A DNA stretch of 64,000 bases from a bacterium (GCA_037200965.1 JBBCGK010000001.1:128001-192000), one strand, 5' to 3'. Counted from the stretch's first letter, positions 3,535 to 30,482 are shown. Translations and numbers: made by a program. Notes: generated by a model not told the origin, from the sequence alone.

Positions 3535-4479
3535 ATGAGAGAAGAAACAATCTATTCCGCCATCGTTCCCGTCTACAACGAAGCCGGGAATCTTGCGGCG
3601 CTCCACGCGGAGCTTGTTTCCGTCTTCCGGAATCTCGGAGAAAGCTTCGAGATCGTGTATGTAAACGACGGCTCGACCGACCCCTCCCTCGCCGAGCTCC
3701 GCGCCCTTTCCGGCGCGACCATCCTCGACCTGCGCCGACGCTACGGCCAGGCTACGGCGCTTGATGCCGGATTTAAGGCCGCCGAAGGGGAGACCGTTAT
3801 CACCCTTGACGGCGACGGCCAGAACGACCCCGCGGATATACCGCGCCTTCTCGCGGTCTTACAGGAAGGGAAATACGACGTGGTCGCGGGGTGGCGGAAG
3901 TCGAGGGCCGACAAGCACTCGGTCCGGATCCTGACGCGCGTCGGCCGCGCGCTTCGCCGCCTCCTTATCTCCGACGTCGTGCACGATACGGGCTGCACGC
4001 TCCGCGTCTATACGCGCGAGGCGGCGAAGAGCCTCGATATCCAGGGCGAGATGCACCGCTATATCCTCGCCCTTCTCCACTGGAAGGGTTTCCGGATCGG
4101 GGAGATCGCCGTGTCGGACCGCAGGCGCATCCACGGCATAAGCAAATACGGGGCGTCGAAGGCGGTCCGCGGCCTTATCGACCTCCTCTACATCTGGTTC
4201 ATCCACAAGTATTCCCAGCGCCCGCTCCATCTCTTCGGCTATCTCTCCCTCGCGTCCTTCACGCTCGGCTTCCTCTCCCTCGTCTGGACCCTCTACGGCA
4301 AGCTCTTCCTCGGGCTCTCGCTTAACAGGAACGGCTGGTTCTTCCTCACGTTCTTCTTCCTTCTGGCCGCCATCCTTTTGTTCAGCTTCGGCGTGATCAT
4401 CGATCTCCTGATGCGGGTGTATCTCAATACCTCGATGAACGAGAAGCGGTATGACGTGCGGGAGGTTATCAGGACCTAG
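3535..4479 (+). CDS. GT2-family polyprenyl-phosphate glycosyltransferase (DPM1/ArnC/GtrB-like) with C-terminal TM helices
   Basis: IVPVYNE...YVNDGSTD...DGDGQNDP motifs of GT-A fold GT2 enzymes; two C-terminal TM segments. Confidence 0.85.
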   Translation: MREETIYSAIVPVYNEAGNLAALHAELVSVFRNLGESFEIVYVNDGSTDPSLAELRALSGATILDLRRRYGQATALDAGFKAAEGETVITLDGDGQNDPADIPRLLAVLQEGKYDVVAGWRKSRADKHSVRILTRVGRALRRLLISDVVHDTGCTLRVYTREAAKSLDIQGEMHRYILALLHWKGFRIGEIAVSDRRRIHGISKYGASKAVRGLIDLLYIWFIHKYSQRPLHLFGYLSLASFTLGFLSLVWTLYGKLFLGLSLNRNGWFFLTFFFLLAAILLFSFGVIIDLLMRVYLNTSMNEKRYDVREVIRT

Positions 4480-4586: not shown

Positions 4587-5774
4587 ATGCCTCCGGAAAA
4601 TAACTCCTTCAAAAACATCCCTCTCGAGCTTTATAAACCGGACTGGGATTCTGCGCTCGCGCGGACGATTCTTGAACTTGAGAAGCTTCGCGTTAAAAAA
4701 CTCGGCGGACCTGTGCCTCCTTATATTTTCTTTCAGTTGAAAAATATTTTTCACATGATGGAGAGCCTTGGTTCCGCGCGCATCGAGGGAAACAACACGA
4801 CGCTTGCCGAGTTTGTCGAGAAGATCATCGACCGCACATCGGAAGAAGCCGGGGACGATCAGCTGCGCGAAATATTGAATATTGAACGCGCTATCGATTT
4901 CATCGAAACCGTCATTACCGATCAGATGCCGCTGACACGGGCGCACTTGTCTCAAATCCACCACAGTATCGTAAACACTCTTCCGCCGCCGCCAGGCGGC
5001 GAAGGTTCGCGTACGCCTGGAGTGTTCCGGTCCATGGCGGTAGCGATAAAGAAATCCGGCCTTGTCCCGCCGGAGCCGATACAGGTTCCGGAATATGTGA
5101 GGGAACTGCTCGATTTCGTGAACGCACCGGTCGACAGCCAGAATGACCTTCTGGTAACGGCGCTTGCACATCACCGCCTGGCGTGGATTCATCCTTTCGA
5201 CAACGGGAATGGTCGTACGGTCCGGTTGTTCACGTACGCCTTGCTTATTAAGCAAGGCTTCAGAGTGAAAGTCGGGCGCATTCTGAATCCTACGGCGATT
5301 TTCTGTATGGACCGCGAACGCTATTACGATATGCTCGCGCGGGCGGATTCCGGCACGCGAGAAGGCGCACTTGAGTGGTGCTCGTACGTGCTTGAGGGCT
5401 TACAGCGGGAAGTAGAGAAGATAGATCGCCTGCTCGACCAGGCCTACCTTACCGAAAACTTGCTGCTGCCCGTGCTTTCGTATGCGCGAGAGCGCGAGCA
5501 TATCACCGCCCGCGAATACGAAATCCTCTTTGCCGTGGTCAAAAGCGAGGAGATGAGCGTCAAATCAGTCGATCTGGAGGCTATTATCGGCCAGGAAACG
5601 CCCCTGCAGCGCTCGCGCATCATCAAGCGCCTTAAAGATAAGGGCATGCTGCGCCCGCTTAAGGAGAACGGGCGTATCTATACGATCGGGTTCGTCAATA
5701 ATTACCTGCTGCGCGGCATATTCGAAACACTCACGAAGAACGGCTTTGTTCCCGAATCGCTTACCAGAAAATAA
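4587..5774 (+). CDS. Fic-family protein with N-terminal SxxxEG inhibitory motif and C-terminal wHTH
   Basis: Fic core HPFDNGNGRTVR (N at the usually acidic position) and upstream SARIEG inhibitory helix motif. AT-rich promoter region at 4500-4586. Confidence 0.8.
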   Translation: MPPENNSFKNIPLELYKPDWDSALARTILELEKLRVKKLGGPVPPYIFFQLKNIFHMMESLGSARIEGNNTTLAEFVEKIIDRTSEEAGDDQLREILNIERAIDFIETVITDQMPLTRAHLSQIHHSIVNTLPPPPGGEGSRTPGVFRSMAVAIKKSGLVPPEPIQVPEYVRELLDFVNAPVDSQNDLLVTALAHHRLAWIHPFDNGNGRTVRLFTYALLIKQGFRVKVGRILNPTAIFCMDRERYYDMLARADSGTREGALEWCSYVLEGLQREVEKIDRLLDQAYLTENLLLPVLSYAREREHITAREYEILFAVVKSEEMSVKSVDLEAIIGQETPLQRSRIIKRLKDKGMLRPLKENGRIYTIGFVNNYLLRGIFETLTKNGFVPESLTRK

Positions 5775-5786
5775 TGTTGTTGCTAT

Positions 5787-5975
5787 ATGGATTGGAGTCC
5801 ATGCAAAAAGTGCGGAAGTCAGAATATACTGCTAGTTGAGCACGGGCTCAACCACCCCGAATTTTATGACGGCATAAGCGAGATAGAGTGCAAATCCTGC
5901 GGGGCCCGCATCGGCCGCTGGTCCGGAAGTGAGTTGGCGCCCGGGGAAGCCGGGCCTCGCTTTGGGAGCATATGA
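5787..5975 (+). CDS. small zinc-ribbon protein (CxxC...CxxC)
   Basis: CKKCGS...CKSCGA pair; stop overlaps the ATG of the downstream GT4 gene (ATGA coupling). Confidence 0.35.
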   Translation: MDWSPCKKCGSQNILLVEHGLNHPEFYDGISEIECKSCGARIGRWSGSELAPGEAGPRFGSI

Positions 5976-7084
5976 AACGCATCCTCGTCCTTAATTACGA
6001 ATTCCCGCCGCTTGGAGGAGGCGGAGGAGTGGCGGCTAAAGTGCTTGCGAAGGGATTCATCCAGAACGGCTGCCAGGTCGACTACCTCACAAGCTCGTAT
6101 ACGGGCCTGAAGCGGTCCGAAGTCGTGGACGGTATTAACGTGTATCGCGTATACGTTCCCGGCCGCACCGGCCTTGCCACCGCAACGATGCTTTCGCTCG
6201 TTCTCTTTCCGTTCGCGGCATTTTGCCAGGGAGTCCGTCTCTGCCGGAAGAACCGCTACGCATTCATCAATACCCACTTCGCCGTCCCTACGGGCCCTCT
6301 CGGCTTCGCGCTCTCGAAGCTCTTCGGCATCAGGAATATCCTTTCGCTCCACGGCGGTGACATTTATGACCCGACGAAGAAAAGCTCGCCGCACCGAAGC
6401 GCGCTCATGCGAAGCGCGGTCCGGTTCGTCATGAACCATGCGGACCGGGTCGTTGCCCAGTCGTCAAATACGAAGGAGAACGCGATCAGGTACTATCATC
6501 CGAGGAAAGACATCGACATCATCCCGCTCCCGTATGAGCCGTTCGAGTTCAGTCCTGCTACACGGGCCGAACTGGGGCTTTCAGACGATCTGTTCTATAC
6601 CGTGAGCGTGGGGAGGCTCGTGCCGCGCAAGGGCTTCGACTTCCTTATCAGGAGCATTGCGGAGATCAGGAACCCGAAGATACACGCGCTTATCATCGGC
6701 GACGGCCCGGAACGGGAGAACTTGCTTAAGCTTGCGCACGAGCTTGGCATCGGGGATCGTATACACTTAACGGGACAGGTGAGCGAGGAGAGGAAGTTTC
6801 AGTATCTCTCGAATGCGAACGTATATGTCCTCTCATCCGTGCATGAGGGCTTCGGTATAGTGCTTCAGGAGGCGATGCAGGTCGGGTTGCCGATTATTTC
6901 GACGGATACCGGGGGGCAACGAGACTTGATTCGCACTGAGAGCGATCTGACTATAATTTATAATGATACAAATGCATTGTCCGATCTTTTGAACATACAT
7001 TTAAGACAATCTCTTTATAATAACACTAAAGTAAATATGCAGGACTTCTCTTTAATGAACATTGGTGCACGATACTTACAATGA
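5972..7084 (+). CDS. GT4-family (GT-B) glycosyltransferase
   Basis: N-terminal LNYEFPPLGGGGGVA and C-terminal ...SSVHEGFGIVLQEAMQVGLPIIST signature of GT4 retaining glycosyltransferases. The 3' ~170 nt are abruptly AT-rich. Confidence 0.85.
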   Translation: MKRILVLNYEFPPLGGGGGVAAKVLAKGFIQNGCQVDYLTSSYTGLKRSEVVDGINVYRVYVPGRTGLATATMLSLVLFPFAAFCQGVRLCRKNRYAFINTHFAVPTGPLGFALSKLFGIRNILSLHGGDIYDPTKKSSPHRSALMRSAVRFVMNHADRVVAQSSNTKENAIRYYHPRKDIDIIPLPYEPFEFSPATRAELGLSDDLFYTVSVGRLVPRKGFDFLIRSIAEIRNPKIHALIIGDGPERENLLKLAHELGIGDRIHLTGQVSEERKFQYLSNANVYVLSSVHEGFGIVLQEAMQVGLPIISTDTGGQRDLIRTESDLTIIYNDTNALSDLLNIHLRQSLYNNTKVNMQDFSLMNIGARYLQ

Positions 7085-8163
7085 AAGTCCTTCATCTCAT
7101 AGATTCGTTAACATTCGGTGGGGCCGCTAGTTTGGTGAAAGATATTTTTGAATTTCAACCCGGCAATACCAATATTTATTTATACCCACTTCGTTTAAAA
7201 GGTAATGTCGTTGATATTGTGCATCCTAACGTAATTCCTACGACTTCTAAATTCAAATACTCACTTTTCCCGTTCTTTGATCTCTATAAAATTATTCGCC
7301 AGAACAATATCGATATATTGCACTGTCACCTTTTCAGATCACAGATGTGTGGATATATATTGAAAGTCTTCTGTTTTCAGCATCTAAAACTTATTTTCCA
7401 TCGTCATGGAGCACCTAATGAATACTGGTTCGCATATGTCCTATTCTTACTCTGTAGTATCTCTCAGGTAGATTACTTTATAGCTATATCTAAAATGGCT
7501 CAAGGTTTTTTATTTGAAAGAGCTCATGTTCCTAAACGAAAGATTCAACTTCTGTATAACTTTGTTAATTTAAGTAAATTTGACGTATCCTCGGTCAACG
7601 TTTCTCAAGCACGAACCAAGCTCGCTTTAAAGAAAACTGATTTTGTAGTTGGCTTTGCGGCAAGAATAGTAGAAGCGAAAGGATGGAAAGAGTTTATAGG
7701 TAGCGCTGTCTTATTAAGGGAGGACAGAGACATTAAGTTTGTTATTGCGGGCGACGGTATTGATAGACCACAATTACTTTCTCAATTGGAGAGACAGCAG
7801 CTTGAAAAGCAGGTTATATATCTTGGGTATCAGTCAAATATGACTGACTTTTATGCTGTGTTGAACTGCTTTATAATTCCTTCTCATTTTGAAACAATGG
7901 GGCTTACAGAAATCGAAGCAATGGCGATGGAAGTGCCTGTTATAGCGTCGAATGTTCCAGGGCTGAATGAAATTATCGAGGATCGTAAAAATGGTTTGTT
8001 GTTCCCAAACAAAGACATAAAGGCACTGACTGATAAAATCCAGCTTTTACGAGACAACGCAACATTGCGGAAAGCTCTTATTGAGCAAGGAAGACGGGAT
8101 TTACAAAAATACTCCTTGCCTGAGTATTTGAAACGATTAGACAATATCTATGCCCAAATCTAA
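7081..8163 (+). CDS. GT4-family glycosyltransferase (low-GC island)
   Basis: ...ETMGLTEIEAMAMEVPVIASNVPGLNEII...; start overlaps the upstream stop by 4 nt. Confidence 0.8.
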   Translation: MKVLHLIDSLTFGGAASLVKDIFEFQPGNTNIYLYPLRLKGNVVDIVHPNVIPTTSKFKYSLFPFFDLYKIIRQNNIDILHCHLFRSQMCGYILKVFCFQHLKLIFHRHGAPNEYWFAYVLFLLCSISQVDYFIAISKMAQGFLFERAHVPKRKIQLLYNFVNLSKFDVSSVNVSQARTKLALKKTDFVVGFAARIVEAKGWKEFIGSAVLLREDRDIKFVIAGDGIDRPQLLSQLERQQLEKQVIYLGYQSNMTDFYAVLNCFIIPSHFETMGLTEIEAMAMEVPVIASNVPGLNEIIEDRKNGLLFPNKDIKALTDKIQLLRDNATLRKALIEQGRRDLQKYSLPEYLKRLDNIYAQI

Positions 8164-8986
8164 CATCTCTGCATATTTGGTTGTATATAACGAAGGCGAG
8201 AAAATAGAGGCTTGTTTGAAAAGTCTGCGTGACGTAGTTAATGAAATAATAGTCGTTCACGACGGTCCTTGTACAGATGATACGTTAATGATTTGTGCAA
8301 AGTATGAGTGTAAGATATTTACCCGAGAGCGACTCGGCAACGCAGAACCACATCGGCCTTTCGCAATTGCACAAAGCAACTATGACTGGGTTTTACAAAT
8401 AGATGCTGATGAGAGATTATCGGAAGGCCTGCGCAGTGCATTAGGAGAATTGACAAACGATCCAGAAGTTGACGCATATACTTTCAGATGGGTTACAGAT
8501 ATAAACGGTACCAAATCTAATTGGCTTGTGAAGCGTATTCTATTCAGAAAGAGTAAAATGTATGCGGTGGGATTCCCTCATATTCAGGCAGAGACAAGAG
8601 GAAGCGAAAAAGATCTTAGTCTCGAATTATTGCATGACACAAAAGAATATAACTCCCCAACTCAGCTACTAAAGAAATACCTTCGCAAAGATAAGGAGTG
8701 GGGTAGGGTAAGCGCCTCCATATTAAATGGACCACTGAGTGCTATTCCAACATATAACTGCGTATTCCCGAGTAAAGACACGAAAGAGTCAGGCCGATTG
8801 CTTCTGATAAAACATCACCCGCTGTTATCAATCCTGAGCATACCCCTCTATGGACTACTCTATGGATACATCATAAAAGGCTCTTTTACACACGGGTATG
8901 TTGGATTTGTATTGAGTTGTCACACGCCCTTGCATTCATTTTATACTTGCTTGTTTTTGTTGAAGAGAAAATTTCCATGGCTCTAG
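8150..8986 (+). CDS. GT2-family glycosyltransferase
   Basis: YLVVYNEGEKIEACLKSL...VVHDGPCTDDT...QIDADE (GT-A DxD region). Confidence 0.7.
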   Translation: MPKSNISAYLVVYNEGEKIEACLKSLRDVVNEIIVVHDGPCTDDTLMICAKYECKIFTRERLGNAEPHRPFAIAQSNYDWVLQIDADERLSEGLRSALGELTNDPEVDAYTFRWVTDINGTKSNWLVKRILFRKSKMYAVGFPHIQAETRGSEKDLSLELLHDTKEYNSPTQLLKKYLRKDKEWGRVSASILNGPLSAIPTYNCVFPSKDTKESGRLLLIKHHPLLSILSIPLYGLLYGYIIKGSFTHGYVGFVLSCHTPLHSFYTCLFLLKRKFPWL

Positions 8987-10254
8987 CAAAGTTATACCTC
9001 GAACATAAGTCGACTATCCACAATCTCGGTTGGAGGATACTTCAAATCACGAGTCAACAGGGAATGGTTCTTTTTCTGTTCATCCTATGCGCCCGTTTTC
9101 TTTCTCCGATAGAATTCGGTTTCTATAATTATACACTGGCGATAGTATTATTCTTAGTAATGTTCGGGGATTTCGGTATTTCCTCGGCAACTTCCAAATA
9201 TGTTGCTGAATATAATGTTACCAATAAAGAAAAATTGCGAGCCATACCTTTCAACGCCGGTATCACTGTTTTTGGGTTCGGATTGCTTACATCCATTATT
9301 GTTCTTATATTTGGCTCATTATACCTCGGCAATCATTTTGAGTCGGTCTTATATGTTTTACCTCTTGTTTTTCTTACCCCTCTCGTTTCGCTCTATGATG
9401 GTATATATCGCGGATTAAGACGTTTCCGCTCTTTAACTTTGATATCAGCTGTCATTGCCTGCCTTTTTGTACCACTAGCTTATTTTTTGGTAAAAACACA
9501 GGGTCTTTTAGGGGCGTTACTGGCGCAAGATGTGTTCTACTTCGTACTATTGGCAGGTCTCGTTATAGGCTATAGGGATTTTGCTTTCAAAATTAATTGG
9601 AAGGTAATTAAAATGATACTAAAGTACTCGGTTATTGTTGGAATTGGTAGTGTGGGATTCTTTTTCTTTGGAAAAATTGATACGATTTTCCTTGGTTCGT
9701 TTGGTTATATCAAAGATATCGGCTATATTGAGATCCTCAATAGGCTTTTTAGCATAGTTGGAACTCTTCCCCTTATTATAGCGAGCGTCATCGGCCCCAC
9801 AATTGCGGGAATCCATAGTCGGAAGGAACATAAACTTTTGCTAATAAAGCTAAATAAATATATTGTACTCTCTTTAATTATTGCGCTGATTGGCAGTCTG
9901 GCCTTTTTGTTCTTTGGCAAGTACGTTATTCAGTTCGCTTTTCCTCAATATTACGATCAGACAATGATAAATATTATTCCTTTATATTCTTTACTACTGT
10001 TTAGTTACTTATGTGCAAGTATAGTGCCCTCGGGCTTTGCTGTATATACGGGCCACGCGAAGATAAGCGCTTATTTTCTTATTGGTTTCGGCATCTTGCA
10101 TGTAATATTAAATTACGTTTTTCTCTCAGCTTTCGGTTTCTACGGACTTATATTCTCAATTCTACTGACCCGTATACCTTCTGACTTATTATTTATATTT
10201 TTTTATAAAACTATTCTTTCTCGAGAACAAACAGCCGAAACGGCTGCATATTAG
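8977..10254 (+). CDS. Wzx-like polysaccharide flippase / MOP-superfamily membrane protein
   Basis: ~12 predicted TM helices; SSATSKYVAEY motif typical of polysaccharide biosynthesis protein (Wzx/RfbX) family. Start chosen at the internal MALAKLY. Confidence 0.65.
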   Translation: MALAKLYLEHKSTIHNLGWRILQITSQQGMVLFLFILCARFLSPIEFGFYNYTLAIVLFLVMFGDFGISSATSKYVAEYNVTNKEKLRAIPFNAGITVFGFGLLTSIIVLIFGSLYLGNHFESVLYVLPLVFLTPLVSLYDGIYRGLRRFRSLTLISAVIACLFVPLAYFLVKTQGLLGALLAQDVFYFVLLAGLVIGYRDFAFKINWKVIKMILKYSVIVGIGSVGFFFFGKIDTIFLGSFGYIKDIGYIEILNRLFSIVGTLPLIIASVIGPTIAGIHSRKEHKLLLIKLNKYIVLSLIIALIGSLAFLFFGKYVIQFAFPQYYDQTMINIIPLYSLLLFSYLCASIVPSGFAVYTGHAKISAYFLIGFGILHVILNYVFLSAFGFYGLIFSILLTRIPSDLLFIFFYKTILSREQTAETAAY

Positions 10255-12157
10255 GCACTTCCCTAAAGCCGACAGCTGACAGCTGATTATAGGTATTCTG
10301 TGTAATGTCTGAGGGCCACGGCCTGATAAAAACAACTACGCTAAAAGGCTCATTATTCATCAAATTCTCGAGATCCTGAATATTAATATAACTTGCGTCC
10401 AAGATGAAATGTTTGCCCGACTTTGCGTTAAAAACATTACCCAGCACATTTTTTTTTCCATAATTTCCAGCGTTTTCATTATAAAAGAAAATCTCTTCGT
10501 CGTACAAAATATATTTAATTGGCAATCCGTAATCGCCAATTTGAACCCCCATGTAATTTGGAATTACGATTGTGTCCTTAGGTAGAGCATTTTTAATAAA
10601 ATTTGCTGGTTGCGAGAAATCTAAAGTTTTAGACCACATAACGTCTTGAGCGTTCAATATTCCTACCGAAAAAAGAGAGGTGGCAATAATTGTTCCAAAA
10701 GCAATTCGCTGCCCTAACGAAAGACCTTTAAAGAATTCAGTAACACTTAGTGCAATTGCCAAAGCCCAGATAGGAGATGTAATAAAAAAGTACCGATACC
10801 CAGCAGGTGTACCTGCTAGCATAATAGGAATGTAAGACACCACAAGCCATATTATGAGATAGATCAGTTTATTCTTAAGAAACTTATCTCTTGCATATAA
10901 CAGCATCGCTATAATACCTGATAATGCAATCGTATTTACTAAAATGGTTGCTATATTACCCCATGAATAAGAATACGGATAAAAAACACTTTCTCTATAA
11001 CTTGCCCACGGAGGAAGACCGCCGATTAAACCATGATAGTAGAAAGCGATGGCGTCAGCAGGATTGCCCTTATAAGCCAGTAGAGCGCACACAGGTAAGC
11101 CTAAAGAAATAAAGAAAAATACCTGATAAAACTCCCGCTTTCTATTTAAAATAACCCACAGAAAAGAAGTGAGGTAAGCCGTAAAAACAAACCAGATATT
11201 AGTGAGATTATTATCTAATAAGATAGCAAGCGCTACGGCAGATAGAATATATTTAAGTATCCTTTGCTGAATACAAACGATCAAAAATAAGAATAGATAA
11301 AATAATGCTACGCTAAAAATATATCCACGAACCTCGTTTTCCAATGTAAGTAGAAAGTAAGAAGTAGAGTAAATTAATAGTGCTAACAAGGCAGTCCTTG
11401 AATTTGTATACTTCTTTGCTAAAGAAAATAAAGGGTATAGTGCGCCAAGGTAAAATAAAAGATTTAAGAATCGACCAGCGTGCAAATAATTATGAGTTAA
11501 TACATTTGCTATATGTAGAAAAAAGAAATAAATAAATCCGGATGATATAGGATTCTCTGATGGAAAATAAGGAAACGAACTAGTGCCATAAATGCTTGCG
11601 GTTTTAATCGATATCCATTCATCTAACCAAAAGGAATGAATAAAAGGCCATTGATAGACAACCATTCCTAAATTTATTACAAATATCGAAACAATAAGAA
11701 CAATATATATAGGACTGTTATCCACTTTATCAATCACATGAGGATCTATTTTTATTTTATGCAAGAAAGACCTTTGGTATACAAGAATACCTGCACAAAT
11801 GCCAATAAGAACTGCGTAATATGCTGAGTCTGGATTAGTTGTCTCAACAAAGCTAAATAATTTATTTAAATCTAAGAGAAGCAGAAAAGTTAAGCAGCTC
11901 CATAATGAGGTAATAGCTACAATAAAAACATATTTATCTAAGACTTTAGAGGTAAAACTACGATACCAATTAAGAAAAGCTGCGTAACTAGATACTATCC
12001 CACATGTTAATAGAAATGTTTTAGGAATAAACCAAGTAAAATCGAGTCCGAAACACGCAATGCAGAACAGTACTATTGAAATAGTAAGAAGAAAAGGCGT
12101 GAGAAAGCGAGTCTCAAGTACTTTAAGTAACCTGAATATTTTGCTTCTACTGAACAT
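10211..12157 (-). CDS. GT-C-type polytopic membrane glycosyltransferase-like protein (ArnT/PMT-like) with C-terminal soluble domain
   Basis: ~450-aa multi-TM N-terminal region plus ~180-aa C-terminal domain; architecture of GT39/GT83 enzymes. No precise family call is possible from sequence alone. Confidence 0.5.
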   Translation of the reverse strand: MFSRSKIFRLLKVLETRFLTPFLLTISIVLFCIACFGLDFTWFIPKTFLLTCGIVSSYAAFLNWYRSFTSKVLDKYVFIVAITSLWSCLTFLLLLDLNKLFSFVETTNPDSAYYAVLIGICAGILVYQRSFLHKIKIDPHVIDKVDNSPIYIVLIVSIFVINLGMVVYQWPFIHSFWLDEWISIKTASIYGTSSFPYFPSENPISSGFIYFFFLHIANVLTHNYLHAGRFLNLLFYLGALYPLFSLAKKYTNSRTALLALLIYSTSYFLLTLENEVRGYIFSVALFYLFLFLIVCIQQRILKYILSAVALAILLDNNLTNIWFVFTAYLTSFLWVILNRKREFYQVFFFISLGLPVCALLAYKGNPADAIAFYYHGLIGGLPPWASYRESVFYPYSYSWGNIATILVNTIALSGIIAMLLYARDKFLKNKLIYLIIWLVVSYIPIMLAGTPAGYRYFFITSPIWALAIALSVTEFFKGLSLGQRIAFGTIIATSLFSVGILNAQDVMWSKTLDFSQPANFIKNALPKDTIVIPNYMGVQIGDYGLPIKYILYDEEIFFYNENAGNYGKKNVLGNVFNAKSGKHFILDASYINIQDLENLMNNEPFSVVVFIRPWPSDITQNTYNQLSAVGFREVPNMQPFRLFVLEKE

Positions 12158-12428
12158 TTAGGTTAATCTTTGAAAGATTTGTAGATGTGCCACTCGCTAT
12201 CGGTATACTCGTCTGTGACCCGCTTACCTGAGTTAAGTAACCATTCGTGTTGGTATCTTTCCGTACCGGAGAAAGCGGTATTCCTTTAAATGCGAAAATT
12301 CCAGCCCGTACATACGAGCCGGAACAGGTCCGTTGCTCCCGGAGAGGTTCTTGAAAAATACGTTTTTCCCGCCAATTAAACAAGTGTTTGTATATTCGCG
12401 TTCAAAACAGGCAAAAGGGCTCGATACC

Positions 12429-13541
12429 TCAAGCTTTTTTGCGTATTTTGACCAACACGGAATTTAACGTAGCTCCGCTTACCTCATATTTATATTTTGC
12501 ATACTTATTAATCAAATTTAGTGGGCTGTAACCTATTTTATATAAACATCCACGATAGAAAGTGGCTGTCCCATGTCCAGCCTTACCGAAAGTTAAGTTT
12601 TGATGACCATTATAATCCTTCCAAATTGTACTGGTCTCTATATACGTTCTTCCAACTAGATTTTCATCAATATACAGTTCGATATAGGCGCTCGTGTCTG
12701 GAAAAGGAGAATACGTAGCGAAAGCGCTGTGCTTGCTATTAAAAAAATCTTCCTTAATTGGATAAGTAATAACATAAAATGGACCTTGTGCGTCGGTCAT
12801 ACGTCCCACTTGAAAAGATACCGTACTTTTATTTTGCAACAGCTCCCAATTATAATGCCCCACAATCTCCTGAAAACCCTGCGTCGGGTCCTCCGGCGTC
12901 CACTCGGCATACACCGTAAACGGTCCGTCTTCGAACATATCGGCAGATCCGGGAAGCTCGAGCTTGCTCTTCCCGTCGAAATACTCGCACCCGTCAAAGT
13001 GAAAGGAATCGCCGACAAGATCGCCCGGCGTACTCGTCGAGAAATCCCACGAATAATCCCAGTCCACCGAGTCCGGATCGAAATCAAGATGCGGCGGGAT
13101 AACCTCGATGCCCGGTCCGCCTTCGACGGAAACCGTCACCCGCGCATTCTTAAGCGCAACGCCTGGATCGAACGTGGCCATGACAAGCCCGTTGAGCTCC
13201 CGATAGGGAATTCCGTTCTCGTCAACCTTCCGCTCGCTTAGCTGCCGGGAAGGCTCGAGGCGGAAAGGACCCGACGTATCGCCCGGAGAGCCCACTTCTA
13301 TAGTAAAGTTCTTCGAGTACCCGAAGGGAAGGAAATTGACGTAGAGAACATAGAGAAGGAAAACGAGCGGGATGGCATACGCGGCAAAGGTCAGCCAGAA
13401 CTCGAGAGTCCGGACGGCCCGCCGGAATCTCGCAGGAGTCTCTCTAATGAAGCGCGTAACTTCCGCAGCGGCCCTGTGAAGGGCCGCTGCCGCGTAGCTA
13501 GCTACGCGCTCGTATATGCCGTTTGCGTCCATGCAATGCAT
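12429..13541 (-). CDS. membrane-anchored hypothetical protein with probable LamG/ConA-like beta-sandwich domain
   Basis: One N-terminal TM helix, then a W/Y/G-rich beta-type sequence. High GC resumes here. Confidence 0.45.
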   Translation of the reverse strand: MHCMDANGIYERVASYAAAALHRAAAEVTRFIRETPARFRRAVRTLEFWLTFAAYAIPLVFLLYVLYVNFLPFGYSKNFTIEVGSPGDTSGPFRLEPSRQLSERKVDENGIPYRELNGLVMATFDPGVALKNARVTVSVEGGPGIEVIPPHLDFDPDSVDWDYSWDFSTSTPGDLVGDSFHFDGCEYFDGKSKLELPGSADMFEDGPFTVYAEWTPEDPTQGFQEIVGHYNWELLQNKSTVSFQVGRMTDAQGPFYVITYPIKEDFFNSKHSAFATYSPFPDTSAYIELYIDENLVGRTYIETSTIWKDYNGHQNLTFGKAGHGTATFYRGCLYKIGYSPLNLINKYAKYKYEVSGATLNSVLVKIRKKA

Positions 13542-13731
13542 TTAGCCACGATTCTCCGATTTCTGCAATGCATCTCGTCCTTAATATCCCATATAATTGA
13601 GACCACACCAAAGATACCAGCGCAATATCCGAACTGCCGCTATCCCCACGATCATTGATTTTTCACTTGCGCGCGCTATACTGCAGTCATACATAGCTTC
13701 GTCCGCTTTCCACGGAACGGAGAAATAATGC

Positions 13732-14581
13732 ATGAAAACGAACAACCGAAAGAGGGTTCCCGCCTCGGACGCGCTTATTTCAAAGCTGGTGCAGCTTGAG
13801 ATAGAGATAAGCAAACTGCCCCGCCTTTCCCCGCTTGAGCAGGCGAAACTTAACAACGGACGCGCGATCGAGCATTTGTATTATTCCAGCAAGCTGGAAG
13901 GCAGCAGCCTCAGCGAAAAGAAAATAGAACACGCCATCTATGGCCGACGGATTTCGGCCGCCTAAAGACAAGGATGAGCTCGAAGACCGCGAAGTGCGCG
14001 GCTTCTGGAAAGCTATCGCGCTTTCAAAGAAAATCGGCGAGAGCAGGGAACGCATCACCCTCGATACTATATTGCGCATCCACCGGACCATGTTCGAGTC
14101 CGTAGCCCCGGCAATGGCCGGTCGTTTTCGCACTGCCGGGGAGGATATAAAGAAGTTGGAATGCCTGGAACCTCCTCCGGGGAGGGTTGTACAGGAAAAG
14201 ATGTATGAATTCTGGAAAATCCTAGACGCGCAGTTGTCAGTACTCCCGTCGCATGCCAAAGGGAATACCGTCACGCAGACAAGAAAATGGAGGACCTCCG
14301 TTTTTGACACAGCGACTTGGACCCAGCATCAGGTTGCCGCAATACACCCGTTCTGCGACGGGAACGGCCGCATGTCCCGGCTCCTCACGAATCTTATACT
14401 CAGCAGATACGGGCTCCCTCCGAGCCAAGTTAAATATGAAGGTGAGGATAAGAAAATGTATCTGAGAGCGCTTTGCCAGATTGATCTCTATGGGGACTAT
14501 GAGCCGCTCAAAAAACTCATCGTGCGGAGCGTCTACGAGGAGTACCGAAAAGAACGCATTTTGAGAAGGAGAAACGGTTAG
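13732..14581 (+). pseudogene. Fic-family protein split by a +1 frameshift (77-aa N-terminal SxxxEG piece plus 213-aa Fic core)
   Basis: ORF 13732..13965 carries YSSKLEGSS (SxxxEG); overlapping ORF 13940..14581 in the +1 frame carries HPFCDGNGRMSR. Together they reconstruct a ~290-aa class II-like Fic. Promoter TTGATT-N17-TATACT at ~13657-13690. Confidence 0.55.
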
Positions 14582-15046: not shown

Positions 15047-16594
15047 CTAGAACCGATACACCCAGATTTCGGAATAAGAATTCGTCTTGCTGTAAAACAC
15101 CTCCGTAAAATGCTCCCGGATATAGGCGGTTTCCTCCTCCGGAAGGCGGCCGGGGCTCAGGGCAAGCGTATCAAGGACGAGGTAGCCGCGCGAAGAGGAG
15201 GTGAGCGCCTGAAGCGGGGCGAGTCCGTCGAGCACCCTTGCTCCGACATAGGATTCGCGCCCGTCGGGGGAAACCGCCGCAGGATCGTCAAAACCCAGAT
15301 AGTCATACCGCACCCAATAGCCGGGCTCGCCGAGGAATATCTTGGTGAATTGAGGGAGAGACGAGACGATCGCGTCTCCCGGGACGCGGTGCGACTTGAT
15401 GTACGCGTACGCTCCCGTCCAGTCCGGCTGCGGCGTATAGGCGTAGTAGGGGCGGGCGGCGAGCGCCGCAGGATCGTCCGACTCGAGGAAGTAGAGGCTC
15501 TCGGGCTTCCATACGCCCGTACCCGAGGCAAAGAAGGCCAGAACAACGAGAAGCCCGATACTTATCTTCTGCCACCGCGGGCGCGCCAAGCTTATAAGAT
15601 CGGAAGTCCCGAGCGCGGCGAGAATGAAGATGACGGGCGTGAGGTGGAAGAGGTAGCGGTAGTGCACGATGCCCGTCAGAAATCCGAGCGGAAGGAGATA
15701 CGCGAGAAGGGCGAAGAGAAGGAGCCATACGCCGCGCCGGTCCTCCCGCGTTCGCGCAAGCGCGACCAGGGCAAGAAGGAGGAGCGGCCAATAGGAGCGG
15801 AGGTAGAAGCTCAGGTAGTAGGGAAGTTCGTAGTGGAAACTTATATGGCTCATAAGTCCTGCCAAGGAAGCGGGCGCGAACGCGCAGCCGACGGCACCCG
15901 CGCAGGCCAAGGCAAGCGCTGCGAATCCCGCCTCGCGAAGCCTAAAGAGTTTTCTAAGAATCCAGCGGTCAACCAGAAACCACGCGATAAAGATGCCCGG
16001 CAAAAGCCAGCCAAGGCCGTGCGTGAGAATCGCGAGGGCGGACAGAACGAAGGTGGCGGCGCCGTACATAACGCGCGATGCCCGGCTTCCGCCCGCATAG
16101 AGAAAGCGGTAGAAACACAGGAGCGCGAGCCAGAAGAACAGCTCGAAAAGCGTATACCAGCGAGCCTGCCGCGACCAGGCGATCTGGAAGTACGAAAGGG
16201 CGGTGAAGGCGGCTGCGGCAAGTCCCGCGAAGCGCCCGAACATGCCGGCTCCCGCGAGATACGCGACAAGAATGAAGGCCGTCCCGGCGATCGCGGCGAG
16301 GAGACGGTACGAGAACGGGCCGTCTCCGAATTCCTGCGCGATAACGGCGGTCGGGTAGCAGTACGTAGGACAGGAGTACTGCTTGCCCGAATCGAGCACG
16401 GTCGAGCCGTGCTCCTTTACGGAAAGCACGGCATTTATCGTGTACCCTTCGTCCATCCAGTAGGATTGCGCGGAGAGGCCGTAGAAACGAAAGAAAGCCC
16501 CCGCGAGAATAAGGACCGGAAGGAGCGAGAGGACGAGCCAGGCCGCGCAGCCGTTACCCCCAGCCCGAAACCCCGGATGCCTTGCGTTCTTCAT
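15047..16594 (-). CDS. GT-C-type membrane glycosyltransferase (ArnT/PMT, GT39/GT83-like)
   Basis: Polytopic membrane protein; N-terminal region FYGLSAQSYWMDEGYT resembles the first-loop motif of ArnT/PMT enzymes. Start moved to MKNARHPGF (16594), avoiding overlap with the divergent gene. Confidence 0.6.
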   Translation of the reverse strand: MKNARHPGFRAGGNGCAAWLVLSLLPVLILAGAFFRFYGLSAQSYWMDEGYTINAVLSVKEHGSTVLDSGKQYSCPTYCYPTAVIAQEFGDGPFSYRLLAAIAGTAFILVAYLAGAGMFGRFAGLAAAAFTALSYFQIAWSRQARWYTLFELFFWLALLCFYRFLYAGGSRASRVMYGAATFVLSALAILTHGLGWLLPGIFIAWFLVDRWILRKLFRLREAGFAALALACAGAVGCAFAPASLAGLMSHISFHYELPYYLSFYLRSYWPLLLLALVALARTREDRRGVWLLLFALLAYLLPLGFLTGIVHYRYLFHLTPVIFILAALGTSDLISLARPRWQKISIGLLVVLAFFASGTGVWKPESLYFLESDDPAALAARPYYAYTPQPDWTGAYAYIKSHRVPGDAIVSSLPQFTKIFLGEPGYWVRYDYLGFDDPAAVSPDGRESYVGARVLDGLAPLQALTSSSRGYLVLDTLALSPGRLPEEETAYIREHFTEVFYSKTNSYSEIWVYRF

Positions 16595-16667
16595 GGGATT
16601 GTGCAATACTCGATCACGACAGTATAGGGGGAATATTATCGGATCGCAATTTATTTTATTTCGCATG

Positions 16668-17195
16668 AAAAGCTTTTCAATCAAGAAATCGGCCGTTCTC
16701 GCGACGCTCGTCCTCGTGCTTTCGAGCGTCGGGTTCGGCACGGCCTTCGGCTACGGCAGGAGCGGCCAGAGCGTGCGCGTCCAGCTTCAGCCTACGGTCA
16801 CGACGACGACCGGCGGCCAGGTGCTCGGCGCATCCGCCTTCAACTTCTCGACCGATCTCACGGTCGGCTCGACCGGGGATGCGGTCACCGCGCTCCAGGA
16901 AACCCTTATCGCGGACATCTATCTCAAAATAGACGCCCCGACCGGATACTTCGGGCCGATGACGCTCGCGGCAGTGAAACTCTGGCAGGCGGCGCACGGC
17001 GTTCCGGCAACAGGCTATGTAGGGCCGCTGACCCGCGCAGCTCTCAATTCCGGCAGCCTTCCGACTGCCTCTGACGAAACGAAGGCAATGGCTTCGGTTG
17101 AAGCAAAGGCACAGCTTGCGAAAGCTCTCGAGCAGCTTGCGAAACTCCAGGCCGCCTATGACGCGGCAGTAAAGGCAGGCACCCTTAAGCCGTAA
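16668..17195 (+). CDS. secreted peptidoglycan-binding-domain protein
   Basis: Signal peptide; GDAVTALQETL...YFGPMTLAAVKLWQAAHGVPATGYVGPLTRAAL matches the PG_binding_1 pattern. Confidence 0.7.
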   Translation, partial: KSFSIKKSAVLATLVLVLSSVGFGTAFGYGRSGQSVRVQLQPTVTTTTGGQVLGASAFNFSTDLTVGSTGDAVTALQETLIADIYLKIDAPTGYFGPMTLAAVKLWQAAHGVPATGYVGPLTRAALNSGSLPTASDETKAMASVEAKAQLAKALEQLAKLQAAYDAAVKAGTLKP

Positions 17196-22589: not shown

Positions 22590-22900
22590 TCCGCGGTAGC
22601 TCAATGGTAGAGCAGCTCCCTGTGGCAAACGCAGCTTCCAAAGGAAACTTTGGTCGAAGAACGAGGTGAATTCGGGGAACCCCGAGCGAGAAATCGCGGG
22701 CAATCCCGAGCCAAGTCCCGAATGTCGGGAAAGGTGTAGAGACTATCTCGCAAGAGAGTACTTGGAAAGACGGATTAATCTTTGTCTTTCCCGGGAAGCG
22801 CCTCGCACCCTTCGGGGTGATGATATAGTCCATCCCTGCCAGTAATGGAAGGAGCGATGTAAGGAGTTGGTTCCAGGTTCGAGTCCTGGCCGCGGAGCCA
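22590..22900 (+). tRNA. tRNA-Asn(GUU) interrupted by a group I intron
   Basis: Exon 1 (22590-22623): acceptor TCCGCGG, D-arm GCTC-AATGGTA-GAGC, anticodon stem GCTCC plus CUGU. Exon 2 (22860-22900): UAA-GGAGT, variable TGGTT, T-arm CCAGG-TTCGAGT-CCTGG, acceptor CCGCGGA, discriminator G, CCA. Spliced anticodon loop CUGUUAA gives anticodon GUU. Confidence 0.75.
22624..22859 (+). ncRNA. group I intron (~236 nt) in the tRNA anticodon loop
   Basis: 5' exon ends in U; intron ends in G. An IGS-like GCAG (22631-22634) can pair with exon CUGU, including a U-G wobble. Conserved core R-like GTAGAGACTA (~22735-22745) and S-like GATATAGTCC (~22822-22831). Confidence 0.7.
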
Positions 22901-24502
22901 GATAGGATTAACATCAGCGAAAGCTGGTGTTTTTCCTTTATTGACGGGCTTTTTTGGCGGTTCGAAAGTTCTTTTTTCGTCTGTTTTTTCTCCCATCATC
23001 TGCATGACACGGTCGGAGATGATTTTGAAGGCTTTATGGTATGAAATCTCCACTTTCTTGCCGTTTATCGTCGAGTTCGAAAATAACAGCGACATCAAAA
23101 GCTTCTTGTCGTCGACCATCTCGAGCGTGCTCCGGTTTACGTAAATCTTCCGCGCCTCCTTGGCCATCTGCAAGAAAGTCGATCCCATGTCGAAGTACTT
23201 GAGATTAGCGTTCTTGTGCTTATTGAGGCTATCCATCACTTCTTCCTGCTCGAGCTTGTACTGCGCGTACTTTTTCTGATAGAAGTCCTCGCTTATTTTG
23301 CCGTCGATCTTATCGTCATATATTTTGTCGAGCCGTTGCGTCGCCGTCTGATATCGTCGCTCCAGCTCGCCGGTTGCCTTTTCCCTGAATTCTATTTCCT
23401 CGCTATGGCTTTCCTTGAGTGCTTCCTGAACCCAGGTGAGCATATGCTCGATGGCCTCGTCATGCTTCGAGCTTAACTGCTCGATATTTTCCATCACTTG
23501 CTCGTCGACCTGCTCCTGCCGGACATATTCTTTCTGCGTGCAGTTTTTATAGTGATTGCAGTGGCCATACCAATGGCCTTTCTGTATCTCCCACGTTACG
23601 CGGCCCTTGCACTCCTCGCACCGAAACACGTTTTTGAAAAGCGAGTTGTGCTTGTTGTATCTCGGCGTGCCGTTGCTGTGCATGATGTCTTGGCACCGCA
23701 TGAATAATTCTTTGGTGATAAGCGGCTCATGTCCGCCCTGGGCGACTTTGCCGTTCCAGCGGTTCATGCCGTAGTAGAACGGATCGCCAAGAAGCTGATG
23801 CACGCGCGAGTGACTTACCTTGTTGCCTCCGCGCGAGCGCATGCCGAGCTTGTACATCTCATCGGCCAGTTTCTTGGTCGAGTGTATATTCGTGGCATAG
23901 AGTTCGAACATTCTTTTGACGATCGGTGCCTTATCCGGATCGAGCACGTGGATTTTGTGTCCCTTCTCGCCGACGGTTTTGTAGCCGAGCGGCGGCTTGC
24001 TCGGCAGCCAGCCTTGCGCGAGCTTTTCTTTCTGGCCTTTCTTCACGTTCTCGGAAAGGAGTCGGATGTAGTACTCGGCCGTGGCTACTTTGACGCGCCA
24101 CATAAACCACTCGTGCGACTTGGAGTCCTTGTGGAGCGTACAGCTCTCTTTGACGAGGTGGATGGTGTGCTTTTCATCGGCCAGTATCCACTCGTCGATG
24201 ACCGGCACGTCGGCAAAGTTGCGCGTGAGGCGGTCGGTCGTCTCGACGAAGATCGTGTTGATCTTCGTCTTGGTCACGTATTCGAGCATCTCGTGGAATA
24301 TCTTGCGCTGGATTTTGCCAGCCGCCGATTCCTGGATGGCGAATACCTTGACCATCTCGTAGCCGTTGCGATCGGCATAGTCGTGCAAGAGCTTTTCCTG
24401 CGCCGGAAGCGAGTAACCGGTATCCTCCTGATCCTTGGATGACACGCGGGCGTACCCCACGGCTCGCAATGGTTGATTTTCTTGATTCATTGTCATGGTC
24501 AT
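22775..24502 (-). CDS. large serine recombinase (phage/ICE-type integrase)
   Basis: AVGYARVSSKDQ catalytic Ser region, recombinase domain, Cys-rich zinc-ribbon (CEECKG...CNHYKNC), coiled-coil C-terminus. Track ORF starts at a GTG (24550); an ATG at 24502 is the more likely start. The 3' ~126 nt run antisense through tRNA exon 2 and the intron 3' end. Confidence 0.85.
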   Translation of the reverse strand: MTMTMNQENQPLRAVGYARVSSKDQEDTGYSLPAQEKLLHDYADRNGYEMVKVFAIQESAAGKIQRKIFHEMLEYVTKTKINTIFVETTDRLTRNFADVPVIDEWILADEKHTIHLVKESCTLHKDSKSHEWFMWRVKVATAEYYIRLLSENVKKGQKEKLAQGWLPSKPPLGYKTVGEKGHKIHVLDPDKAPIVKRMFELYATNIHSTKKLADEMYKLGMRSRGGNKVSHSRVHQLLGDPFYYGMNRWNGKVAQGGHEPLITKELFMRCQDIMHSNGTPRYNKHNSLFKNVFRCEECKGRVTWEIQKGHWYGHCNHYKNCTQKEYVRQEQVDEQVMENIEQLSSKHDEAIEHMLTWVQEALKESHSEEIEFREKATGELERRYQTATQRLDKIYDDKIDGKISEDFYQKKYAQYKLEQEEVMDSLNKHKNANLKYFDMGSTFLQMAKEARKIYVNRSTLEMVDDKKLLMSLLFSNSTINGKKVEISYHKAFKIISDRVMQMMGEKTDEKRTFEPPKKPVNKGKTPAFADVNPIWLRGQDSNLEPTPYIAPSITGRDGLYHHPEGCEALPGKDKD

Positions 24503-24546
24503 AATTGCTAATAATTTGTTGGTTCGAATTCGACGTTCGGTACCAG

Positions 24547-24596
24547 ACACACCATATGCCTATTCGTTTGCGCTGCTAAGCCCGAGTTACCCACAT
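24547..24596. repeat. copy A of an imperfect ~50-60-nt repeat (TATGCCTATTCG...AAGCC...GTTACCCACAT)
   Basis: Shares blocks CCTATGCCTATTCG and GTTACCCACAT with 35475..35534; same orientation; immediately upstream of the intact recombinase gene. Confidence 0.5.
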
Positions 24597-24708
24597 TCCA
24601 CCAGTCTTTTGCTCGAAACGTTGGGTTTTGTTGGCTTTTGTTGGGTATTTGCAGCATTTTCCGGTGGCTACTGGTGGGTTCCGGTGACTCAAAAACGGTT
24701 AAATAAGG

Positions 24709-25293
24709 TCAGTTGCGGTTAAATGACGACCGGCCTTTCATCGTCATTTTTGCTACCAGCTTGGCTTTCATGTCGTTGATCTTCTTGAGGTTCGCGCCGT
24801 TAACTTCTTTATAATTTTCTTTAATTTCTTTTGAACCCTTAGCTTCTCTATCTTCTCCGTGCGATGCGGTATGCGCCGCGTGCCGGCCGGCATTTCGTGC
24901 AGATCGGCCGCCATCCTGCGCCAGATGTAGGACGGAAAGCAAGGTGATGCTTCGTGGCTTGAACTTGGCATCCGCGCCACGCACTTTCGTGGTCACGATA
25001 AATGCCCACGCTTCGAGCGTGTCGAGACATTTCTTGATCGTGCGCCAGTCTTTGAGGCCACAGTAAAGCAAGAGCGTCCGGTTCGACGCCTCGATGGTTT
25101 GGCTCGCTTTGTTCGATGCGATCTCAGTCAGAGCGCAGTAGACATTCCGCAGATTGCGGTACGCATCATCGCTTACGCGCTTGTCGATCCATTCCTGTCG
25201 CATGTACCGCAAAGCCGGCTTGTCTTGATAGGCAAACGGAGCTTCGCGGTAGTCTCGGACCTTATGCTTTTGTTCGCTTTGGTTTGGTGTCAT
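24709..25293 (-). CDS. hypothetical protein of integrative element (possible wHTH replication/regulatory protein)
   Basis: Basic protein; wHTH-like segment ASNRTLLLYCGLKDWRTIKKCLDTLEAW. Confidence 0.4.
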   Translation of the reverse strand: MTPNQSEQKHKVRDYREAPFAYQDKPALRYMRQEWIDKRVSDDAYRNLRNVYCALTEIASNKASQTIEASNRTLLLYCGLKDWRTIKKCLDTLEAWAFIVTTKVRGADAKFKPRSITLLSVLHLAQDGGRSARNAGRHAAHTASHGEDREAKGSKEIKENYKEVNGANLKKINDMKAKLVAKMTMKGRSSFNRN

Positions 25294-25471
25294 ACGGTTC
25301 GATGAGCGTGCGGCCGCTCGTGATGTCCTCGAGGTAAAACCGCGACAGCGCGTCGTAGTACCTCACCAGATTGAAGGCGATGTCGTGCAGGTCTTGGTCG
25401 TTTACGTCCAAGCCAAAGTCATGCTTCAGGATCGCACGGAGCTTCTCCAGCGTTTCCGGTTTGATTTTCAC
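25262..25471 (-). CDS. hypothetical small protein
   Basis: 69-aa ORF; 3' end overlaps the next gene start. Confidence 0.3.
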   Translation of the reverse strand: MKIKPETLEKLRAILKHDFGLDVNDQDLHDIAFNLVRYYDALSRFYLEDITSGRTLIEPYDTKPKRTKA

Positions 25472-25476
25472 AGGTC

Positions 25477-25719: not shown

Positions 25720-25868
25720 GTGGCATTTTCATTGTCATTAACGTCCTCTCACACGCATTCATTGTGGCAATTTGGCATACGCTTCTGGAATACTGCGAGC
25801 GTGTAGTCAGACACGAAAAAAGCAGCCATTTTGCTGCTTGTCGCTCCCACTTATTAACTACATCAGAG

Positions 25869-26534: not shown

Positions 26535-26636
26535 CTTTAAGCCGTATTGCTTATTCTGGATAAGCTACTTGTGCTTAAGCTTAGTATATCATATAATGCA
26601 CTGGAAGTTAGCTTTAAACTAACTATAGGTAAGTAT

Positions 26637-28285: not shown

Positions 28286-28289
28286 ATTT

Positions 28290-29360: not shown

Positions 29361-29361
29361 T

Positions 29362-30465: not shown

Positions 30466-30482
30466 GGTTATGAAAGAGTCCC

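Follow-up and report, generated by a model that had tools for sequence, protein, structure and literature searches.

Does a block of AT-rich glycan genes in a GC-rich bacterial genome mark a single import from a low-GC donor, or a site at which such blocks are regularly present and regularly different? The question is raised by a bacterial stretch of 64,000 nucleotides (GCA_037200965.1, JBBCGK010000001.1:128001-192000; hereafter the window), in which an initial annotation described a horizontally acquired surface-glycan cassette starting inside a GT4 glycosyltransferase gene (GT4a below). A surface-glycan cassette with glycosylation genes for neighbours is supported by our analysis, and the host appears to belong to the Patescibacteria, a placement that rests on named homologues (Minisyncoccia, Taylorbacteria, Falkowbacteria, Uhrbacteria, Parcubacteria). 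One-off import into this genome is not the best reading. The block is probably the variable centre of an envelope-glycosylation locus conserved in Patescibacteria, and as such a hypervariable glycan island of the replacement type, with exchange by recombination in a conserved frame of genes: the frame recurs in relatives, the cassettes within it differ from each other and are AT-shifted, and the borders lie inside genes without disturbing the reading frame.

Along a 300-bp profile, the GC content is 0.56-0.60 up to position 6900, 0.29-0.43 from 6901 to ~12750, and 0.50-0.58 beyond; in a 1-kb profile, the block is the deepest GC trough of the 64-kb window. Borders were defined as maximum-likelihood two-segment changepoints, with ranges of 2-lnL support. 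The left changepoint lies at 6945 (support 6917-6956), at codon ~325 of the 370 codons of GT4a, and the right one at 12857 (support 12836-12881), at codon ~229 of the 370 codons of a gene for a LamG-like protein, giving a block of 5.9 kb (~6945 to ~12857) with both edges intragenic and in frame. The left border had initially been put at ~6915, close to the changepoint, with an AT-rich tail of ~55 codons and a flank of 62% GC; the tail has ~46 codons and the flank ~57% GC. The right end does not lie at ~12.4 kb as first proposed: low GC runs ~430 bp further, to ~12857, into the 3' part of the LamG-like open reading frame (ORF), which had been missed and is therefore compositionally chimeric as well. 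The parts of the two mosaic genes, with their GC content at third codon positions (GC3), are as follows.

5972-6943, plus strand: GT4a, host-type part, residues 1-324 (PF00534 8.7e-36, PF13439 9e-19; GC3 0.73)
6944-7084, plus strand: GT4a, cassette-type tail, residues 325-370 (left junction 6917-6956; GC3 0.28)
12429-12857, minus strand: LamG-like gene, cassette-type C part, residues ~229-370 (right junction 12836-12881; GC3 0.32)
12858-13541, minus strand: LamG-like gene, host-type N part, residues 1-228 (cytoplasmic helix, membrane helix and start of the beta-domain; GC3 0.68)

GC3 is 0.31-0.39 in the island genes and 0.63-0.83 in the flank genes, and drops within each mosaic gene as listed. 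Among 35 long ORFs of the window, those of GT4a and the LamG-like gene have the two highest log-likelihood ratios for an internal changepoint (25.5 and 20.6), the next being 9.6 and the median 3.0, and none of 2000 codon shuffles reached the values observed for the two (maxima 9.9 and 10.6). By both the sliding profile and the shuffles, the GC drop first noted is thus real and the composition is not uniform. The three best sigma70-like matches within 5500-14000 fall exactly on the two junctions (6930-6964, plus strand; 12876-12849, minus strand); the match at the right junction is the AT-codon spelling of the invariant H-Y-N-W (CAT TAT AAT TGG), and these matches may be either coincidence or internal promoters of the cassette.

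A conserved frame around differing cassettes

The block has a fixed setting. The locus runs from a GT2 gene (GT2a) through GT4a to a variable cassette of ~4-8 kb, which is followed on the opposite strand by the LamG-like gene and then a putative GT-C gene (GTC2). When a profile of the GT4a family was scanned against one genome per GTDB species, seven loci (L004, L005, L007, L008, L009, L011, L016) proved to have a LamG-like gene that lies 4.5-6.5 kb downstream and converges on GT4a; most of them have GT2a directly upstream, a GTC2 orthologue directly past the LamG-like gene, and a Wzx gene with unrelated genes in between. The same frame is present on the contigs of the closest homologues (L084, L085, L089, L090, L091, L093/L094). 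Altogether, it was found in 14 loci, and the gene content of the cassette is different in every genome. The flanking genes, rightly described at the outset as glycosylation-related, are therefore not incidental neighbours, since GT2, GT4, LamG and GT-C genes constitute the conserved frame of the locus.

For comparison of GC content, the cassette was taken as the segment from the equivalent of GT4a residue 324 (or the end of GT2a) to the equivalent of LamG residue 228. Its GC content is below that of the flanks in all 14 loci, by 0.047-0.219, and the shift holds even in hosts of 0.32-0.38 GC, where the cassettes have 0.26-0.27. The five closest GC-rich relatives all have a low-GC block at the same site (block versus flank: L084, 0.35 and 0.57; L085, 0.38 and 0.55; L089, 0.41 and 0.50; L090, 0.40 and 0.53; L091, 0.37 and 0.51). 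In all hosts examined, AT-richness thus belongs to the cassette compartment as such and is not the mark of one low-GC donor; the GC step is conspicuous here because the host has ~57% GC, not because the insert is uniquely foreign. The possibility, raised initially, that all relatives have the same low-GC segment holds for the site and not for the segment, which is never identical. By blastn, homology between the window and the GC-rich relatives ends at 6919-6924 and restarts at 12760-12828. What lies in between varies: the cassettes of L084 and L085 carry methyltransferase, GT2 and LPG_synthase_TM genes, and across the loci a Wzx or LPG_synthase_TM gene is accompanied by differing sets of GT2, GT4 and methyltransferase genes and by mutually unalignable GT-Cs. 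The remaining genes of the locus in the window are the following.

3535-4479, plus strand: GT2a, conserved frame GT2 with C-terminal membrane helices (PF00535 3.8e-27; GC3 0.83)
7081-8163, plus strand: GT4b, cassette GT4 glycosyltransferase (PF00534 1.5e-36; GC 0.37)
8150-8986, plus strand: GT2b, cassette GT2 glycosyltransferase (PF00535 5.5e-14; GC 0.41)
8977-10254, plus strand: Wzx-like (Polysacc_synt/MOP) flippase (PF01943 3.5e-20, PF13440 3e-12)
10211-12157, minus strand: GTC1, putative divergent PMT_2-like GT-C, a 648-aa polytopic membrane protein (PF13231 7.3e-05, sub-threshold)
12158-12428: spacer between GTC1 and the LamG-like gene (270 bp; GC 0.45, intermediate)
15047-16741, minus strand: GTC2, putative conserved frame GT-C, PMT_2-like (PF13231 1.3e-05; 25.9 bits against a cut-off of 26.1)

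GT4a has both domains of its family, with bit scores above the cut-offs for PF00534 (123.5) and PF13439 (68.5). Its best match among the GTDB species representatives has 62% identity, and it is 75% identical to two homologues (P0002 and P0003) across residues 1-318. The glutamates of the E-x7-E motif, E292 and E300, are invariant, and the break comes directly after the most conserved block (residues 287-318), which contains this motif. Amino-acid identity to the orthologues of the two closest relatives, L084 and L085, is 95-100% at residues 271-320 and 15-28% past residue 321, and in codon alignments GC3 drops at residue ~321 in all three genomes alike; the proposal that the gene is a mosaic is thus confirmed, the loss of identity coinciding exactly with the collapse of GC3. 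The tail is nevertheless a genuine GT4 C-terminus, as it can be aligned with the family and the Pfam match extends past the junction as far as residue 344. Many GT4a homologues cover only 86-87% of the query. Regression of pairwise identities gives the tail an identity of 0.18-0.20, compared with 0.29-0.34 expected from the identity of the N part. This regression replaced a ranking of homologues by BLASTP with the 52-residue tail, which was uninformative because the tail is too short and too divergent. Elsewhere the left border lies differently: the entire GT4a gene is low-GC in L089, while L090 and L091 have no GT4a orthologue and the block reaches GT2a or an epimerase gene.

In two relatives GT4a is fused to cassette genes, as a 623-aa GT4-methyltransferase (L085, 10001-11872) and a 721-aa double GT4 (L089, 8186-10351), so the junction region can create gene fusions too. 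Members of the GT4a family share 45-60% identity over records titled Patescibacteria, DPANN archaea (Pacearchaeota, Woesearchaeota, Nanoarchaeota), Methanosarcina/Methanolobus and many Spirochaetota (loci L004-L083), which makes it a cross-domain GT4 of unusual conservation; some sources name it 1,2-diacylglycerol 3-glucosyltransferase.

GT2a resembles polyprenyl-phosphate sugar synthases (ArnC/PgfS/AglJ/PpgS-like), although this is a resemblance only: its NCBIfam matches to the ArnC type (7e-37, 127 bits) and to PgfS (5e-33, 115 bits) are below the respective cut-offs of 529 and 500 bits. GT2a homologues of 41-68% identity adjoin GT4a, and GTC2 orthologues of 44-54% identity adjoin the LamG-like gene, in the related loci. 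The gaps between frame genes also hold toxin-type genes, which are recurrent but mutually unrelated: Fic genes in the window (4587-5774, between GT2a and GT4a, and 13940-14581, between the LamG-like gene and GTC2), Fic-RhuM, PIN, RelB/YafQ and NYN genes in L085 (5451-8573, 15933-16931), and a zeta toxin gene in L084 (8935-9651). The GC content of the 5' region of FicA dips to 0.41-0.44.

For the cassette itself, the gene content first reported (GT4, GT2, Wzx-like flippase and a 648-aa GT-C) agrees with Pfam, the weak point being the GT-C, since GTC1 scores 23.5 bits for PMT_2 against a cut-off of 26.1. The nearest copies of GT4b lie in the cassettes of L091 (40%) and L090 (39%), and JGI metagenome contigs contain no close relative of it; Wzx is 34-43% identical to the Wzx genes at the same position in L004, L007, L009, L011, L016 and L090. 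A search of 5.8 billion proteins with GTC1 returned only the protein itself, and among 1.84 billion representatives it has relatives in 11 clusters, of which the closest are 38-40% identical. In 12 of 13 loci an ORF of 600-760 aa directly follows the LamG-like gene on the same strand; half of these 12 positional equivalents of GTC1 match PMT_2 (best 1.7e-15), and a sequence search of the PDB with a profile of the cassette GT-Cs gave zero matches. The cassette GT-Cs can barely, or not at all, be aligned between genomes. That of L091 finds its best match in the distant L005 (27% over 593 aa, E = 3e-48) and no BLASTP alignment with those of its close relatives. In NCBI, GTC1 is a protein of 517 aa (GT39 family) starting from an internal Met, as compared to the 648 aa of the first-ATG ORF; some of its relatives align from residue ~43-85 onward.

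Two histories within the LamG-like gene

The LamG-like family comprises at least 171 proteins, nearly all unannotated; a few members, from Minisyncoccia, Taylorbacteria, Falkowbacteria and Uhrbacteria, are named LamG-like jelly-roll. The protein of the window has no Pfam match, and PF13385 is found on some homologues. Its AlphaFold2 model (predicted local distance difference test score of 90) has helices at residues 6-43 and 46-69, the second being hydrophobic, followed by a beta-rich part (75-368). Foldseek matches the model to CBM40, laminin G and other ConA-like domains and to AbnA domain 4, with a probability of 1.0 and E of 1e-7 to 1e-5, over alignments of ~170-220 columns at 10-20% sequence identity. 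From this model, we read the protein as membrane-anchored and outward-facing with a lectin fold, the topology being suggested by the positively charged N-terminus.

The two halves of the gene have uncoupled histories. The N part is 68-71% identical to those of the five GC-rich relatives, and GC3 drops at alignment residues ~231-260 in all six genomes. Among 96 homologues, the identity of the C parts is 0.47-0.50 irrespective of whether that of the N parts is 0.40 or 0.80. Pairwise identities are correlated among blocks of the N part (0.30-0.47) and among blocks of the C part (0.29-0.36), but not between N and C blocks (-0.02 to 0.15), whereas the GT4a family, taken as a control in the same analysis, has no such split. 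Of 88 pairs with N parts at least 80% identical, 32 have C parts below 55%; in one pair (P0153/P0174) the values are 94% and 47%. The break is present at the DNA level too between L093 and L094, one of these 32 pairs and both low-GC: 84-100% identity up to residue 225, 78% at residues 226-240, and then mostly 43-56%, except for 0.70-0.71 at residues 271-300, with unrelated genes downstream of LamG in the two. It falls at an invariant motif, G228-H229-x-N231-W232, between two strands of a single beta-sandwich, that is, in the most conserved sequence and not at a domain boundary.

The family profile has one match in IMG/VR, a 6.2-kb contig binned with a giant virus (L092, IMGVR_UViG_GVMAG-M-3300005583-9_000001), whose protein is 49% identical to that of the window; this contig is probably a mis-binned Patescibacteria fragment.

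Proposed exchange of the cassette and its alternatives

The borders carry the signature of recombination: identity and GC3 break abruptly at residue ~320 of GT4a and ~230-240 of the LamG-like protein, and the N and C parts are uncoupled. Under the exchange reading, cassettes would be replaced by recombination with crossovers in the conserved frame, as described for replacement islands (PMC4033161), and the exchanged unit would reach over the final ~46 codons of GT4a and the final ~140 of the LamG-like gene. Either crossovers or selection would fix the borders just past the conserved motifs, EX7E in GT4a and G-H-x-N-W in the LamG-like protein. Judging by the families to which the proteins belong, the cytoplasmic glycosyltransferases would build a lipid-linked glycan that Wzx flips, the cassette GT-C together with the lectin-like protein may transfer it outside the membrane, and GT2a and GTC2 may add a polyprenyl-phosphate-linked sugar, the putative product being a surface glycoconjugate. 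A swap of the cassette would then change the surface glycan, with possible relevance to phage receptors or host attachment.

Several observations weigh against this reading. The comparison is between species and genera, the closest pair (L093/L094) being ~83-92% identical in the frame. Only three genomes have the left border at GT4a codon ~324, and across the GT4a family as a whole the blocks of pairwise identity reveal no uncoupling of the tail. Similarity of the LamG C part does not follow that of the adjacent GT-C (rho 0.04), so that co-evolution of the two as a unit is unsupported. All gene functions are assigned by family resemblance, with the GT-C and ArnC-like matches below curated cut-offs. 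Protein, cluster and JGI searches found no near-identical copy of the cassette in another genomic background; with neither donor nor copy at hand, we infer rather than observe the exchange of this particular cassette. Finally, RecA-type recombination directly between DNA of 37% and 57% GC is unlikely, and exchange would therefore probably take place among lineages that share similar frames. Either, then, cassettes are exchanged among relatives with GC-rich flanks, or the borders are ancient and inherited.

A bolder extension of the exchange reading, which we put forward tentatively and consider rather unlikely, makes the LamG-like protein a Patescibacteria-wide two-module adaptor: the N part (anchor and first strands) would be kept with the host GT-C machinery, specificity would reside in a cassette-borne module made up of the C-terminal two-thirds of the lectin domain, and recombination would recur at G-H-x-N-W. 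The version in which this module co-varies with the adjacent GT-C is unsupported at the present resolution, given the correlation above. If the adaptor idea were true, the LamG-like protein would be a self-glycan-recognizing partner of GT-Cs, a class of component undescribed for bacterial glycosylation; surface 'serotypes' of the Candidate Phyla Radiation (CPR) would have a natural marker in the locus, and the intragenic GC step, which hosts show whatever their GC content, would serve as a clean natural test of GC evolution that depends on recombination.

The AT shift may stem from import from an AT-rich pool or from AT-ward drift of alleles without a homologous partner. The second possibility can be taken further, to the view that AT-richness arises in place, in old alleles that are too divergent to recombine and so escape GC-biased gene conversion or codon selection; the GC step would then be the edge of the recombining frame and not the trace of a recent import. 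This view is compatible with exchange and differs from it on the cause of low GC only. It accommodates the AT shift in all 14 loci and its scaling with host GC, the coincidence of the GC step with the end of DNA homology, and the border position common to six genomes. Against it, the cross-lineage affinities of cassette genes imply transfer, and we regard it as a serious possibility, if one we would bet against.

A one-off acquisition from a low-GC donor, with the two chimeric genes as scars of a single event, was the initial interpretation. The sharp 20-point GC step without sign of amelioration agrees with it, homology to relatives stops at the junctions, and donors would be plentiful, since most Patescibacteria are low-GC. 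However, the low-GC cassettes that the five GC-rich relatives carry at this site hold other genes and share the LamG position of the right border, and cassettes are AT-shifted even in hosts of 32-38% GC, their GC content roughly tracking that of the host. A donor lineage, which homology searches of the island genes had been expected to reveal, was not identified, either by the protein and cluster searches with GTC1 or by comparison of GT4b with JGI metagenome contigs. A single import is thus improbable.

Far less probable still is an integrated mobile element (phage, integrative and conjugative element, or transposon) with glycan genes as its cargo. A serine recombinase and a defence island do lie ~10 kb away (22.8-30.5 kb), and Patescibacteria phages have been reported with lectin-like and O-antigen genes (PMC12911398). 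Nevertheless, the five genes called in the block include no Pfam-recognizable integrase or transposase, and no attachment-site-like direct repeats were found in or at the block, where repeats are limited to short matches at chance level; the block therefore lacks the hallmarks of integrase-mediated islands, namely, an integrase and flanking direct repeats, often at a tRNA gene. Moreover, its borders are intragenic and in frame, its position is fixed across lineages, and the single viral-contig match is the 6-kb contig from the giant-virus bin.

The neighbouring region contains an apparent element of its own. A group I intron (RF00028, 64 bits, 22608-22852) interrupts a putative tRNA gene (22590-22897, plus strand) that is not reported by ARAGORN/Rfam; the 5' exon starts with TCCGCGGTAGCTCAATGG, the 3' exon ends with GGTTCGAGTCCTGGCCGCGGAGCCA, and the acceptor stem pairs. 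A large serine recombinase gene (22775-24550, minus strand) abuts this putative tRNA gene and is followed by a defence block of lower GC content (41-47%) encoding AbiEi/AbiEii, an EcoRI-like N6-adenine methylase (4e-133), GmrSD_N+HNH, an 827-aa DUF2254 protein and DUF2726. The whole region (22775-35175) looks like an integrated element.

The last alternative is an artefact of assembly. A 960-kb contig of GCA_037975565.1 contains the window; GT4a with its left junction and surroundings is 100% identical in the Logan assembly of SRR28211700 and 99.99% identical in a contig of GCA_015655515.1, and a 30.9-kb contig of GCA_015689235.1 encodes exactly the same chimeric LamG-like protein of 370 aa. 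Since the same junctions recur in other assemblies, they are no assembly artefact. GTC1 and the LamG-like gene abut or overlap in relatives, compared with a spacer of 270 bp between them here; the spacer has no nucleotide or translated homology to the loci fetched, and its RNA fold is not significant (z = -1.0). The contigs of two other assemblies stop inside it, at 12258 and 12370, which suggests a branch in the assembly graph. That a GC-rich and an AT-rich organism were joined through conserved GT4 and LamG sequence is the least credible explanation, for although the window comes from a metagenome assembly and two others break in the spacer, three assemblies agree exactly on the left junction and two on the right one, both junctions are in frame, analogous junctions are present in L084, L085, L089, L090 and L091, and the frame is syntenic on both sides of the block.

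Significance and comparison with known systems

Patescibacteria are ultra-small and mostly episymbiotic, and their surface decides host attachment and phage infection; to our knowledge, almost nothing is known about their surface glycans. The conserved GT2-GT4 and LamG-GT-C pairs on the two sides of the cassette provide a handle to find the glycan-type locus in any CPR genome, and the locus is evidence that surface-glycan genes are the part of these streamlined genomes that turns over fast. With a border inside a lectin-fold gene, it also gives a testable lead on the coupling of glycan specificity to the machinery of export and transfer. In metagenome-assembled genomes (MAGs), variability of the cassette explains assembly breaks and mis-binning at the site, and a GC island in a MAG is not always contamination or a single horizontal-transfer event.

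The enterobacterial O-antigen (rfb) clusters between galF and gnd and the pneumococcal cps locus between dexB and aliA are low-GC and hypervariable, encode Wzx with serotype-specific glycosyltransferases, and switch serotype by recombination in conserved flanks. The present locus resembles them as a low-GC, hypervariable polysaccharide cluster with Wzx (PF01943 3.5e-20). However, no Pfam family of an initiating phosphoglycosyl transferase, of Wzy or of the chain-length regulator Wzz is present among the genes called in positions 1-21 kb of the window, so this is not a canonical Wzx/Wzy cluster. A cassette-specific putative GT-C stands where a polymerase or ligase would be expected, and the organism probably lacks an outer membrane of the lipopolysaccharide type.

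Extracytoplasmic glycosylation with polyprenyl-phosphate sugars is carried out by systems such as GtrABC, CsbB-GtcA-YfhO, ArnC-ArnT, Streptococcus mutans Pgf and Ppm1-Pmt. The locus resembles these in combining a membrane GT2 (ArnC/PgfS/AglJ-like) with PMT_2-like putative GT-Cs, again by resemblance only and below cut-offs, and high variability from type to type marks the GT-C partner here as it does gtrC. Unlike these systems, it encodes two putative GT-Cs, of which one is conserved and the other belongs to the cassette, along with Wzx, a LamG-like partner, and GT4 and GT2 enzymes of the cytoplasm; no small flippase of the GtrA/GtcA type is present among the called genes, although small ORFs were not searched exhaustively. 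The LamG-like protein shares its beta-sandwich fold with LamG/ConA-like and CBM40 carbohydrate-binding modules and differs from them in its N-terminal membrane-helix anchor, in the fixed position of its gene by GT-C genes and in the exchange of the C-terminal two-thirds of the domain between lineages.

The closest parallel is with the replacement flexible genomic islands ('glycotype' or O-chain islands) of aquatic bacteria such as Alteromonas and Pelagibacterales (PMC4033161, PMC4898812, PMC11898729). Like the present locus, they occupy a fixed site between syntenic genes, hold lineage-specific glycan genes and no mobility genes, and lose identity sharply at both borders, where replacement is attributed to homologous recombination; in the genes bordering them, synonymous divergence (dS) rises (PMC4033161). 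Here, the host is a member of the Patescibacteria, the comparison is between species and genera and not between strains of one population, and the borders, unlike those of replacement islands, lie inside the frame genes, which results in chimeric proteins. Genomic islands and surface-modification genes are known in Patescibacteria in general terms (PMC12455944, PMC12911398), and the literature searched contains no description of the frame or of the LamG border, an absence that is no proof of novelty. The hypervariable glycan island described here is known in kind, and it appears to be new for this phylum and in its intragenic lectin border.

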